From the NCBI GenBank assembly GCA_964199315.1, contig OZ116707.1, positions 2,976,001 through 3,040,000 of the forward strand: a stretch of DNA of 64,000 bases, given 5' to 3'. The DNA comes from Orbicella franksi (lineage: Eukaryota). Below the pieces are notes generated by a model. That model ran no database searches. It saw nothing but the letters and a program-made list of their open reading frames with translations, and was not told the DNA's origin. Shown here piece after piece: positions 57,153-64,000 of the stretch; within the stretch, counting starts at the first letter, position 1; the number at the start of each line of letters is the position of its first letter. The position numbers and the translations under genes are program-made.

Positions 57153-59287
57153 AAACACTTGATGTAAGACAATGATTCCTTGAAATAAAGTTGAGATTAA
57201 AGTGCAGTTGTTTAATTTAAACACTTGTGTACTTGTTTTATCCAACTGGTTTTAAGCACTGTTTGTATTATTTCAAGTATTCAAAGTATTGTTTTAAGAA
57301 CTAAAACAACAATTCTGGTGATTCCCAGAGGACAGTAAAACAAGTAGTTCTTTATCTTGATTTAATTAACCAACTTTTAGAGTGTCAGCTTACCTGTGTT
57401 GCATGTAGCTTGCGAAGAGCCCTGGTGCAAAACAAGTCAGGAAGACCTTCCCTCAAAACAACCTTTACGACTCTATTTGCTGACGAATGAGCACATGTGA
57501 CCTCTAAGCTTTAAAAAAGGCACTGTTGAGTGTCAGAAAAATCCACGAACACCAAATATACTCACTGACAGTTGTTCGGTGAAGGACAAATTAACCTACA
57601 GACAACAGCGGACAGACAGTCCTCGTACAGACTTGAGCCTGCTGAGTTATTAGCGGTTTAATTAATTGTAATCTTTATTTTCTCCATCTCATTCATGTTA
57701 TGCTCACTAAGCACAACGGGTAGTGGACTAGTCCACATTGGAAAGTAACTGTGATTGACTTCGGGTGCATGCACATTTCTATTTTTTTTTCCTTTCTTTT
57801 TTCAGTGTTCTAGTGATACAATAAATAAATGCTCTGTGTTTATATCATTTTGCTCGCTATATGTGCATTTACCATAGCATAACCGTACTTCAACGACTTT
57901 CGTTTCTGAAAAGTACACACGAAGACCGCATCCAGTGAGAACTTGTGCTGCTTATTGATTTTACGATTCTGGATGTTCTCATTTTTGGTGGCCGAGTCTT
58001 CTTTAACTTGTATCTTTTAATTTAGACCTTTAAAACAGCTCGTTTTAATTAAAGATAGAGAGCAATTTAAAAGTAAGCTGCAAGCGCACTTCATTTGCAT
58101 AATGTTTACAGCCCATTGAGTGAGCAACACATTTCCCCATAACTCATAACTCATGTTGCGCATGTGCAATTCGCAAGTTAAAAATGGCTGAGCCAGGAGA
58201 ATTGAATGCTTGATCAGAGTGAGAAAAATGATGGCCAAGCGATTTTTCCTGCTAGAGAAACCATAAACGGACTCGATTTCTGGACTGGAGGGTAGAGCTT
58301 AAGTATCCTGAACAGTGAGCAATAATGACTTAATGCTGTGGTTTTTTTCCTGCGAAAAAATTTTTACAAAGTACCATGCAGCACATGAAGAAATTATTTT
58401 CAAGCGCACGACAAACTGTCAACGAAAATATTTTCTTGCTGGGAAAAAGAATAAAGACTCGCTATTCGCTCTAAGATTTAGCACTTAGTTAACTTTAATT
58501 CATCCGGTTCATAATTGATCAGTCTCTGGATACTTTAGCTGCGAAATCTTTTGCAGTGTTGTTTCCAAAAGCAGAACTACAAAGGGAAGAATATGCCCGT
58601 GGTAGGAGAATTGAAGACTCAACCAGAGTACAAACATTATGGCGAAGTGATTTTTTCCACTAGGGAAACGACCAACGAACTTGATTTTGGGACTAAAGGA
58701 TAGAACTTAAGCATCCTGAACAGTGAGCTACTTACAGTGTTTGGAAAAAAGCCCTGATAGCATTCCAATCCCCTGAGATGTAAAACAGCCCCTGTAAACA
58801 GATATTACAAGATGAGTGAGTGTAATAAATTTTTCACTTTCAGGAAGGCATTTGTCCAATGTGTCTGGAACCAGGGGACACAGAACTACTATGCTGTAGA
58901 GCAAAGATTCATGCCTTTTGCCTCCAAGACTGGGTATGGAATAGACCTTCTGACCATTGTCCATGCTGCAATCAAGAGCTGTCATGACCTTACGTTCCAA
59001 TGGTTGTGGCAGCTCAAGTCCAGCAAATGCCCGAAATGAGGGCTAATTTGATTGCTGTAAGTAATCACCTTATAAACCATACATTTATTAAGATATGCAA
59101 CTATGATGAGTAGAAGTCCGCTCCTCCTTCGAGAAAGGAGGCCTTGGATCCTAGCCAGTGGTGATAGACAGACATTGTCCACGCCAATCAGGAATTCCAG
59201 TACATATTAGAAGTCTGCACTGAGTGGATGGGCCTGTACTTTCTCAATTTTTTTGCCCCATCTAGTCATTGATGGGGACCAAGTCTC

Positions 59288-59620
59288 TTTTACTTTTAAC
59301 TTTTTAACTTTTTAACTTCTCAACTTTTAACTTTTTTAACTTATAAACGACTGTTCATCACTCACAAGTCTAAAACTAAAGTGAAGAATAACAATGGATG
59401 CACTAGTTCTCTTTTCAATGGGTTCAGATCTTTATCAACGTTTGACTGCTTTCAACTCCCATAGCATTCATTTCCATTTTTGTTTTCTCTCAAAGGTATT
59501 ACCACAAGGTGAAATCAGTTGACGTGAGAGACCTTCCTTCGAATGAAAACACCACGTGGTTCTGTAGAACAACACATGCAAACAAATGGAAACTCACCTC
59601 GTTAGTTGACCTGCAAGACC
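59288..59620 (-). mobile_element. 5'-truncated non-LTR retroelement 3' end with (AAGTTAA)n tail
   Basis: Minus strand ends in TATAAGTTAAAAAAGTTAAAAGTTGAGAAGTTAAAAAGTTAAAAAGTTAAAAG, a tandem-repeat tail typical of CR1/L2-like LINE or SINE 3' ends. Confidence 0.55.
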
Positions 59621-59990
59621 AATAGCATTCACATTCTCAGGATAGCCCGAAGATTGACTTTGTATTGGCTTGAAATTCATGAGAAAACTCCACTGATATT
59701 TTCACTGCATGTTCAAATGAGAGCCTACTCAGAGAACTGAATGGTGTCAGCAACATTTGCTTACGTTGGGTGGTAAACATGTCGTGAGGAACTGTTGAAG
59801 CGGGTGGGAGGGGTGGGAAAAAACAAGAGACGACTTCCGGTGTAAACTTTTTTAATAAAAGCACTTCAACAAAGCTTTACTTCACAGGTAACCAAAACAT
59901 CAGATTTTTCATAGCTCCAATACAGCAAAAGTGGTAAACAACTGAAAGTAGCAATGTTCACAGACGCAGTGAGTGCTCAAATGTCTTTTT

Positions 59991-60341
59991 TCACTCATCC
60001 GCTGAGGGTTGAGGAGCACAACGGAGATTCAGTTCCAAATTTGCCCAGCAGAAAAACAAGCATGGCCAATGCTCTTTACAGCCAAAGTAAGGCCTCCCGG
60101 GATTCTTCTCTGAATGTGATACCCTCAAAGTGGAAGGTTTCTTGTGTTGACAGAGGGGAGAATCTTTCCCTGTAAATGTCGTGGACACATCCAACTGCAC
60201 TGCTCTCTCATAGGTTGGAAAATCCTTTACAGGACAGAAGTAACCACACAAACAATTGGTACATATCACATATTCTCTGCCATTGCTCAAAGCCACAAAC
60301 TGTTCCCTCTGTCCTTTCTTGCAAAAGCCACACAAAGACAT
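59991..60341 (-). CDS. Small zinc-finger protein with a C-terminal zf-GRF domain
   Basis: CGFC...CTNCLC..FC...; CQHKKPSTLRVSHSEKNPGRPYFGCKEHWPCLFFCWAN is a GRF-type motif; TATAAAA lies upstream. Confidence 0.7.
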   Translation of the reverse strand: MSLCGFCKKGQREQFVALSNGREYVICTNCLCGYFCPVKDFPTYERAVQLDVSTTFTGKDSPLCQHKKPSTLRVSHSEKNPGRPYFGCKEHWPCLFFCWANLELNLRCAPQPSADE

Positions 60342-60844
60342 CTTACGGAATGTCTAGTCATCAATCTATAAAAAAATCACAGGCGTTTTTTATACACTCA
60401 CCAGAGGGGGTATCCCCCTAGCATGGCATGAGTGCTCAGCCAGCGGGTATGGGGTATTCCCCCTTTCATGACGTCAGCCCCAGCAAGGGGAGGGGGTATC
60501 GGACCTACCATAACGTCAACAGTAGTGTACAATGCGTATAGGGGCAGTAGCCAATCAGGAGCCAGGAAAAAATGATGTAGCAAGCTCTCGACCAATCAGA
60601 TTGCAGCATTTGGTGACGAATTAAAAAGGGGCGTGGTTTGAAAAAAATTGATGACGTCACACCTCCGGTGTTGTCCAAATAAGGTAATGACTGGAAGTTG
60701 TACTGGCTGTACGCCAAGGTCAGGTTGCATTTTGGGGGTAGATCTCAGGGTAGATCTCGCGTGCCAAGGCCAGCTTGATTTTTGTGGGTTCGCACGCACG
60801 ACCTTAGTGAAAAACACAGGAAATTTTTTGTAATGACTCTGTAA

Positions 60845-62601: not shown

Positions 62602-63294
62602 TTACATAAAAGTGACGGCTAGCTCTAAAAACTCAATGTTCTCTGGGTCAGTGTCAGAGCTAAATCAACACGATATCTCTTCAGCAAGTGCTGAGGCCAG
62701 GAAGGGTGGAGAGGCGACTGTTTCTGGAGACTGGTTTGGTATTGTCTCTGTTATCTGTTGACGGTTTTGATCTTGTTTTCGGTGATTTTCTCAGATCCTT
62801 TCCTGGTGGCGTTCTCTATAATGTTTCTGGTAGAGTTTGTCTCTTTCCCGAATGCTCTCTCTGTGCTTGATCTTGTATTGGCAGTTTTGTTCTTGGAGTT
62901 TTTCTCGGTGGCGCTGTTTGTAACGTTTCTGGTTGATTCGGGATCTTTCTCGGATTAATTCGTGGTACTTGGCCTTGTATTTACGGGCATATTCTCAAAC
63001 TTTTTCAGGGTGTCGGGCACGATTTATCCGCCTCAGTAGCTTGATGTGCTCTTTATTTTCGGCTCTGTATTTTTGAGCTTTCTCCTATAGCATTTCTCAA
63101 TGTTGTTCTCTGTAGGGTTTCTGGTAGAGTCTGCCTTTTTCTTGGACTGATTCGAGGTGCTTGGCCCTGTACTGACGGGCATATTGTTGGTAATCTTCAA
63201 GGTGTTGGGTACGATATATCTTGGCCTTTTGTTTGATACATTGGGCATTTTTTTCTAAATATAATTTCCACCTTTCTGTTATGTTTAGGGACAA
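62602..63294 (-). pseudogene. 231-codon basic repeat protein (YR-x-K/R-H-x-E repeats) with 5 premature stops
   Basis: One frame: YRTQHLE, YRAKHLE, YREQH*E, YRAENKE, YKAKYHE, YKQRHRE, YKIKHRE, YRERHQE. Stops are 4 TGA + 1 TAG, each compatible with a C>T change. Confidence 0.65.
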
Positions 63295-63499
63295 AAATTA
63301 TGACAAGCAGGTTTTTTCTAGTGCGCTTAGGGGGTGGTAATGGGAGATGTACGTCATCGCTAGCATGCGCTTGGGGGTAGCCAGTTGATGCCATCTTTTG
63401 GGGGTGGTAATATACAACATCACAGTTTTTTACTAGCGCATGCTTTGGGGTAGTCGGTTGACGTCATCTTTGGGAGCTTAATATAAGGGAGAGGTAGTT

Positions 63500-63874
63500 G
63501 TGGTGAGCAGAAATTTTTTTTTGACAGATCTAGATTGTGTTTTGAAGATAGCTTCAATGCGGCTGGAGAGGGAGCCAGAGAACCCACAGGAGAACCCAGA
63601 GAACCCAGAGGGGGAGAACTCACCAGATCTGGTCAAAGAATTAACCGTTTTGGTGGTGAATACGGTTTTTCTCAAGGAAAGCATGGAACTGGTCTCCGAA
63701 ATCACCAAATACCGTTCAAATTTGTCCCGTCGCCTGTCGGATCGCCTACCTAACCTGACAGGTCAACTGGTCAACATGGTGAGATTTCACGCTGGTTTGA
63801 AAGCGGGTTGGCAGGAGTGGAAAAAGAAGGGCAAGCAATGCGAGGAATCTTCCTTTGTGGCTTTCATGAACTGA
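63500..63874 (+). CDS. Orphan small protein (EPEN repeats)
   Basis: Open 124 codons (ATG at 63557) after TATAAG and TGACGTCA motifs; protein-like composition. Confidence 0.4.
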   Translation: MVSRNFFLTDLDCVLKIASMRLEREPENPQENPENPEGENSPDLVKELTVLVVNTVFLKESMELVSEITKYRSNLSRRLSDRLPNLTGQLVNMVRFHAGLKAGWQEWKKKGKQCEESSFVAFMN

Positions 63875-64000
63875 AAGACAGAGACTATATCATGACCTTG
63901 GACTTTTTTTATTATGTAACGTTTGTTTTTAAAAAGAGATGCGTAGTAGGGGTGTTGCTGTTGTTGGCATCCAGTCCCCTTTTCGGTTGTTAAACCTGTC

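Follow-up and report, generated by a model that had tools for sequence, protein, structure and literature searches.

A coral Polinton-derived element family without integrase or virion genes of its own, probably mobilised by complete Polintons

Polintons are defined by the presence of pPolB and an integrase, and surveys detect them through their capsid and ATPase genes. Members of this group (Polintons or Mavericks, Polintoviricetes), coral polintoviruses included, possess terminal inverted repeats (TIRs), a 6-bp target site duplication (TSD), pPolB, a length of about 20 kb and small accessory genes (PMC11131425, PMC8097293). We analysed a stretch of 64,000 nucleotides from Orbicella franksi (contig OZ116707.1; G000:C10:2976001-3040000 in the coordinates used here), which we call the window and whose positions are counted from its first letter. 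A cluster of short genes at its right end (58,800-64,000) had been taken, in a sequence-only reading, for the accessory arm of an endogenous Polinton-type element. The TIRs, 6-bp target duplication and pPolB expected of such an element were indeed found, and the family to which they belong shares the traits listed above; unlike Polintons and Mavericks, however, it has neither an integrase nor a virion module. We conclude, with a probability of roughly 0.78, that position 60,521 marks the start of the left arm of an integrase-less, virion-gene-less Polinton-derived family, inserted at four sites likely by the integrase of complete Polintons. The genome searched comprised 497 Mb, and genome-wide searches yield lower bounds only. 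Between 0.47 and 0.62 of the sampled words of the region occur in four DNA runs labelled 'coral metagenome', in keeping with a coral host.

The cluster is not the single element that had been proposed: it consists of two nested elements, with a boundary at 60,520/60,521. The limits of the younger one, which we call core-less, are:

60515..60520, + strand: 6-bp target site duplication GTCAAC, repeated after the right TIR (G000:C10:3068069-3068074)
60521..60684, + strand: left TIR of the core-less Polinton, starting AGTAGTGT; 91.5% identical to the inverted right TIR (G000:C10:3067909-3068068)
63875..64000 and on to G000:C10:3068068, no strand assigned: the element beyond the window, with cargo, a RING-like gene, five WDxLP repeats, an interrupted pPolB and the right TIR

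The left TIR is 164 bp long, has AGTAGT ends and lies 31.5 kb from its right partner. It has 16 related matches in the genome and is 85-90% identical to the TIRs of complete elements at C4, C13 and C15. The GTCAAC junction at 60,520/60,521 recurs, at 95% identity, in an independent contig (L135). Inward from the left TIR follow ORF-A (an open reading frame), a tRNA-His remnant, a RING-like remnant, a WDxLP gene, a basic repeat gene and an acidic gene; these are succeeded by a GTPase-like/LRR cargo block, a RING-like gene, five WDxLP repeats, pPolB (PF03175, E 2.8e-12, right of the window) and the right TIR. Two nested insertions are private to the window copy. One, of 8.3 kb, is Helitron-like (PIF1 helicase, endonuclease); the other, of 7.8 kb, resembles a retrotransposon with long terminal repeats (LTRs; reverse transcriptase, rve). 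Without both, the copy measures 15.4 kb.

Co-linear copies, for which the sequence-only reading had suggested a search, are present in the genome. There are four, the window copy included, all at different target sites; the three sister copies (C15:6625584-6655564, C10:3191739-3211800 and C10:3307428-3332416) are 82-95% identical. Homology among the copies begins at the TIR, and their flanks are unrelated. All four have 6-bp TSDs, each different (two exact, two with one mismatch). A C2H2 zinc-finger block occurs in the three sister copies and not in the window copy; the LRR block is missing from one copy. Without private insertions, the lengths are 20.1, 21.1, 15.4 and 13.5 kb. An independently assembled contig (L131), in which no core gene is present, covers 10.4 kb between the WDxLP gene and pPolB and agrees with one copy at 99.6% identity.

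Three further observations concern these copies. A span of 330 kb (G000:C10:3036521-3362800) holds three of them and a complete Polinton, suggesting a local insertion hotspot. Short duplicated pPolB fragments stand in the cargo block of two copies (L033 9282-9963; L024 236-325), a trace of internal rearrangement. In another contig (L134), which holds the right junction of the C15 copy, a WDxLP gene abuts the pPolB C-terminus, representing a strongly deleted allele or a rearrangement.

The core genes were mapped in 12 elements with 25 protein queries; a complete Polinton nearby supplied 11 core or core-block queries for tblastn. None of the four core-less copies matched the integrase, the capsid candidate, any of four frames from the penton region, the protease, the ATPase or either of two further core-block genes. 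Among the other eight elements, one was the source of the queries, six carry the core and one (on C8) keeps only the ATPase and a piece of pPolB; in the six that carry the core, the capsid candidate was 79-84% identical. Profile hidden Markov models of ten core-block genes, built from complete elements, scored at most 3 bits in the four core-less copies, bar one integrase match. That match, of 23 bits, maps to the nested retrotransposon; the positive control scored 178-611 bits. Core Pfam families were likewise absent from all 117 open frames (at least 48 amino acids) in the middle of the C10:3191739 copy. The integrase, protease (PF00770) and ATPase (PF04665, weak) labels of the complete elements' genes come from Pfam. 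These searches show that the family of the window element lacks, at the level discernible by sequence comparison, an integrase, capsid, penton, protease and packaging ATPase of its own. Hallmark genes had been predicted beyond the window: pPolB was found there, to the right, and the other five are missing here and in all three sister copies.

The element on C8 (G000:C8:10069843-10079094, L067) is an internally deleted Polinton of 9.25 kb, with the TSD TTTCAA, an ATPase and an inverted, duplicated pPolB end.

Complete relatives share this genome. At least 92 capsid-candidate loci were counted, most of them open. Two complete elements (C4:28064349 and C13:21416690) have a pPolB 89-90% identical to that of the window copy, and in the pPolB tree the four core-less copies and these two form one clade (100/100), nested among the complete Polintons of the same genome. 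The core-less family shares only about 6 kb with them, i.e., the ends and the pPolB arm; where these presumptive helpers have a core block of 14.8-15.0 kb, it has unrelated sequence, amounting to about 14 kb of cargo. At 20.1 and 21.1 kb, its two longest copies come close to the length of the helpers (21.2 and 21.5 kb); the other two are shorter.

Shared sites were compared along the elements with CpG columns masked. The left arm divides the four core-less copies two against two (38 sites vs. 3 for the other divisions), and in the RING-WDxLP segment 13 sites separate complete from core-less elements. In pPolB, 11 sites in the N-terminal part unite one core-less copy with a complete element, and 9 sites in the C-terminal part unite another. 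The changing patterns suggest exchange with the helpers, and the core-less pPolB would thus appear to be a mosaic with that of complete Polintons.

Another complete relative lies at G000:C10:3338093-3362800 (L047-L050). This Polinton has an rve integrase, protease, ATPase, capsid candidate and pPolB, with an observed/expected ratio of CpG (CpG o/e) of 1.15, and its terminal arm holds tRNA-Met and tRNA-His genes between accessory genes.

A 6-bp target duplication at unrelated sites needs a Polinton-type integrase. Because 6-bp TSDs occur at four unrelated sites and no integrase is encoded, the most likely source of the enzyme is complete elements whose TIRs are related, acting in trans; the TSD of Polintons and Mavericks is itself 6 bp (PMC8097293). 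Mobilisation in trans by a helper is thus the most likely route for the core-less family. Since integrase and virion module were sought and not found, the family is no member of the autonomous Polintons/Mavericks; it behaves like a non-autonomous one. In the sequence of events that we propose, one ancestor would have lost its 15-kb block of integrase and virion genes and received about 14 kb of cargo in its place. The resulting element would have been copied from its TIRs by protein priming, probably via its own pPolB, and a helper integrase would have recognised the ends common to both, generating the 6-bp duplication. Replication beside helpers would have allowed the swapping of pPolB segments with them. 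Once inserted, the copies presumably became methylated, gathered mutations and were broken up by other transposons. That pPolB was retained may point to self-replication; packaging of core-less genomes in helper capsids is suggested only by their length.

Several points weigh against this interpretation. A very divergent integrase or capsid would escape the query and profile tests, and a copy with both cargo and core could have been missed, the genome searches being lower bounds. In the helpers, the capsid gene is labelled by its size and position, having matched neither Pfam nor PDB; the penton label, too, comes from size and position. The copies number only four, three of them within 0.3 Mb of one contig and in the same orientation. 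They do not group together on pPolB; when they are forced together, the p value of the approximately unbiased test is 0.082, such that a single clade is neither shown nor rejected. The mosaic patterns rest on 9-13 sites per segment, without a formal recombination test. In all four copies pPolB is interrupted, and by a rough count its shared differences are mostly synonymous in the C-terminal part (15 vs. 6) and not in the middle part (4 vs. 16). Finally, constraint on pPolB could have been inherited from helpers through recombination.

The last of these points lend themselves to an alternative that we consider unlikely, although it survives best: the same non-autonomous family may have been a passive passenger whose pPolB was already useless, with helpers supplying both replication and integration, as for a deletion derivative that keeps its right arm. 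The interruption of pPolB in every copy and the middle part without an excess of synonymous shared changes would fit, as would the 9.66-kb element on C2 described below, which has Polinton ends and a 6-bp TSD without any pPolB, and the derivative in contig L134, which lost most of the gene. However, the full span of pPolB was kept in all four genomic copies while cargo blocks were lost. Moreover, the ratio of nonsynonymous to synonymous differences (pN/pS) among core-less copies is 0.40-0.72 in its C-terminal part, compared to 0.67-0.70 for a noncoding control.

Less probable still is that the four copies are complete elements that decayed separately, one decayed element duplicated along with a chromosome segment, or an artefact of assembly. 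Decay is common in such elements (96% of vertebrate endogenous Mavericks are defective; PMC8097293), three of the copies are clustered, and the C8 element has been internally deleted. But the TSDs and flanks differ and no shared flanks were found; the same cargo stands in place of the core in all four copies, with no core remnant in any; and layout and junction are reproduced by independent contigs. The original proposal, by which a complete Polinton or adintovirus shows its variable arm here and has its hallmark genes beyond the window, retains hardly any probability. The TIR, TSD and pPolB are present, and complete Polintons in this genome have homologues of some arm genes, but the full span from TIR to TIR was read, and the missing core refutes it for these four copies. 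Weakest of all is the proposal that the ORFs are frames open by chance or belong, as exons, to an ordinary host gene: splice-acceptor-like sites, the resemblance of the LRR cargo to host genes and the unconstrained basic and C2H2 frames speak for it, but it is refuted for the arm genes, which in four copies lie within a mobile element bounded by TIRs and TSDs and whose order persists in diverged contigs.

A bolder extension of the preferred reading, that of a helper-dependent Polinton-derived family, is possible but, in our estimation, doubtful. The family might be a true satellite of animal polintoviruses: helper-sized (20-21 kb), replicating with its own pPolB, borrowing integrase and capsid, recombining its pPolB with that of helpers, and using the freed 14 kb for ubiquitin-ligase-like genes and pieces of host-derived immune genes that it possibly moved between hosts. 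If so, the zf-GRF element on C2 and the WDxLP loci with Polinton ends on C12 and C3 (see below) would form a tier of Polinton parasites that hallmark-gene screens drop.

The short genes that had been described as tiling the region on both strands are all in place. Those of the core-less element are:

60845..61141 (open frame 60,845-61,216), - strand: ORF-A, a conserved accessory gene; no Pfam match
61160..61209, - strand: likely tRNA-His gene remnant, read by eye; no ARAGORN call in the window copy
61217..61340, - strand: RING-like gene remnant (CxxC piece), truncated by a deletion of about 150 bp, seen as a gap against the C15 copy
61595..61942, - strand: gene of a WDxLPxE-motif protein (formerly read as F-box-like), after a consensus splice acceptor
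62605..63300 (approximate), - strand: basic Arg/Lys/Tyr-rich repeat gene, broken by five in-frame stops relative to a sister copy's open frame
63557..63874, + strand: accessory gene with an acidic N-terminus; six of seven candidates homologous, unnamed

The cluster had been called a largely orphan gene set. Pfam indeed gave no match for its four ORFs other than zf-GRF, but homologues of the zf-GRF, ORF-A and acidic genes exist in a complete Polinton, and the gene order recurs in diverged contigs. The terminal arm of that Polinton contains a zf-GRF gene, tRNA-Met, a RING-like gene, tRNA-His, and ORF-A-like and acidic-like genes, the acidic match being weak (25%); part of the set therefore belongs to a shared Polinton accessory pool. 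ARAGORN called a tRNA-His at the equivalent position in two sister copies and one complete Polinton. Among nine diverged metagenome contigs (L136-L144, about 45-65% identity, too short to reveal a core), four have the order acidic-basic-WDxLP and four more have basic-WDxLP only.

Constraint differs among these genes. Pairwise pN/pS falls below the noncoding control (0.67-0.70) for most pairs of ORF-A (0.31-0.73) and of the WDxLP gene (0.35-0.53 in five of six pairs, 1.32 in one), and does not do so for the basic, acidic (0.38-1.88) and C2H2 frames. The basic gene gives no signal of constraint among copies (0.80-1.00); it has internal repeats of 102/192 bp and homologues at about 40-50% amino acid identity in the diverged contigs. 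ORF-A has about 40 further genomic matches at 71-87%.

The WDxLP gene had been proposed to encode a spliced F-box-like protein. The ORF is there, but F-box identity was not confirmed, and the splicing amounts to consensus splice sites. There are four close genomic copies of the gene, and five of six database candidates are homologous, all unnamed; the family comprises 219 clusters at E<=0.001. F-box family profiles matched none of 87 family members, while 8 of the 87 gave weak PRANC matches (best E 2.3e-4). A PDB profile search gave no match for the WDxLP protein. Nor did Foldseek at E<=0.001, using the confident model of a paralogue (pLDDT 85.5); the model of the window protein itself was unusable (pLDDT 45.9). 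We regard F-box identity as a lead. The longer RING-like ORF of a sister copy reached only E 0.0077 with zf-RING_2. Going by motif resemblance, the RING-like and WDxLP proteins would most likely serve to redirect host ubiquitination.

WDxLP homologues also occur at two loci without core matches in the fetched parts, G000:C3:8845001-8875000 (L127-L129) and C12:16265001-16305000 (L123-L126). The former has five matches about 19-24 kb apart in a tandem unit, of which two compared units are 98-99% identical; the latter has ACTACT-type ends.

For the cargo, a host origin is likely only for the LRR and GTPase-like pieces. The LRR cargo is similar to LRR genes of the host that have long ORFs (61-79% across about 35 amino acids). 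No host source was found for the GTPase-like cargo: its six genomic matches all lie inside element copies, and its Pfam matches are weak. Rfam returned nothing significant, viral contigs one weak 13-amino-acid match only, and the atlas search with a stored homologue scores of 0.80 only.

Left of the boundary lies the DNA into which the younger element inserted. The zf-GRF gene, formerly assigned to the same arm, is outside the left TIR and belongs here:

58200..60514, no strand assigned: older decayed Polinton-type relic (zf-GRF family), the insertion target; left limit approximate; outside the younger element
58844..58987, + strand: RING-H2-like exon of the older relic; Pfam zf-ANAPC11 (PF12861), E 2.4e-5, just under the curated cut-off; a consensus splice acceptor precedes it
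59991..60353, - strand: zf-GRF zinc-ribbon ORF of the older relic; PF06839, E 1.2e-6

The relic (CpG o/e 0.43) is 72-79% identical in patches to a 9.66-kb element on C2 (G000:C2:36794400-36804062), and DNA on the right-hand side of the younger element corresponds to the end of that C2 element (scores 62 and 68 vs. shuffle maxima of 37 and 31). Matches on both flanks indicate that the younger element inserted into an older Polinton-type relic; two of six flank comparisons (the subterminal left flank and 57,151-58,200) did not rise above shuffles. The zf-GRF ORF has homologues in the C2 element (57-69% amino acid identity) and in the terminal arm of the complete Polinton (33%; PF06839, E 2.3e-6).

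The C2 element (L112, L113) has AGTAGT..ACTACT ends, the TSD CATGTA and multi-kb inverted arms that are 81-92% identical, with one zf-GRF gene per arm. With no pPolB, integrase or capsid match, it represents a second core-less family; a further end lies at C2:32865844.

Each gene in the cluster had been said to have its own set of Pol II motifs. The motif words are denser in the cluster than in the rest of the window, but an own set per gene was not confirmed. In small counts without a shuffle test, TATAAAA occurs five times (0.96/kb vs. 0.17 in the rest of the window), TGACGTCA three times (0.58 vs. 0.02), CCAATCA three times (0.58 vs. 0.20) and CTTCCGG once (0.19 vs. 0.03). The TIR accounts for two of the CCAATCA words and one TGACGTCA.

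The decay by C-to-T change that had been described is evident. Of 161 differences between the window copy and the C15 copy, 60 are CpG to TpG/CpA in the window copy and 5 run in the opposite direction; CpG o/e is 0.67 in the window arm vs. 1.03 in a sister copy. The bias and the depleted CpG fit a window copy that decayed by CpG mutation after past methylation. RNA contigs (from four of six RNA runs, with a small share) gave no joint on 58,200-64,000 matching the putative splicing. They span coding and noncoding parts alike, and their deepest part is common to many other Polintons; for these reasons, and with possible DNA in the libraries, they are uninformative on expression, silencing and splicing.

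Elsewhere in the window, a Crypton-like tyrosine recombinase ORF (DUF3504, E 2.3e-28) followed by a 140-bp palindrome occupies 55469-57145. An LTR-retrotransposon-like element at 47339-51995 has an 814-amino-acid gag-pol frame (49,313-51,757) between 173-bp direct repeats that are 97% identical.

How does such a family compare with those already described? Our literature search found no pPolB-only, integrase-less, multi-copy animal Polinton family; most subscription papers, Repbase and supplements lay outside its scope, so absence from print is not established. Non-autonomous Polintons resemble the window family in that ends are kept, enzymes act in trans and the interior is replaced; those in Repbase are mostly noncoding deletion derivatives. 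The window family has kept pPolB and has coding cargo of helper length, which sets it apart from them by that general description only. The same likeness extends to large retrotransposon derivatives (LARDs; PMC6431247). A core-less pPolB family is not described in the accessible portions of PMC6431247, PMC3014272, PMC8097293, 10.1101/2025.02.07.637071, 10.1101/2023.08.22.554363, 10.1101/2024.01.15.575659 or 10.1101/2024.03.25.586562. The survey of coral polintoviruses required the major and minor capsid proteins (MCP, mCP) plus ATPase, or any three hallmark genes (PMC11131425); core-less elements would be dropped by this filter. By the definition and survey criteria with which we began, a multi-copy family with only pPolB and Polinton ends would be invisible to such screens.

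Concerted loss of the morphogenetic module has a precedent in capsid-less Polintons: 9 of 72 elements had no MCP, protease or ATPase (PMC4028283). The loss described for those nine concerns these three genes; the window family is also without integrase. In the examples given in another report, pPolB modules occur together with DDE integrases throughout (10.64898/2026.10.13.758929), unlike the pPolB found here. Nematode Mavericks have variable, intron-bearing cargo beside the left TIR, for which recombination between elements was proposed. They keep integrase and virion genes, however, and their cargo is 2-5 kb, whereas the window family shows a 14-kb replacement of the core (10.1101/2022.07.12.499685).

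If the helper-like length reflects packaging, these elements would be gene carriers of large capacity and indirect evidence of Polinton particles in corals. Because the copies are decayed, their value is evolutionary and not functional. Among the closest parallels are transpovirons and cytoplasmic linear plasmids, replicons of the Polinton lineage in which the structural module is gone and a replicase is kept (PMC11161782, 10.64898/2026.10.13.758929). Transpovirons are parasites of giant viruses with a pPolB-helicase fusion, and the linear plasmids are not chromosomal (PMC11161782); the window family has a canonical Polinton pPolB, lacks an integrase and is chromosomal with TSDs. No transpoviron-type fusion with a superfamily-1 helicase was seen in it: its pPolB is co-linear over the whole span with that of complete Polintons. 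For linear plasmids and transpovirons, a step from virus to helper-dependent replicon has been invoked; the family would be a concrete case of it in animals, one in which the helper and the element that depends on it share a genome.

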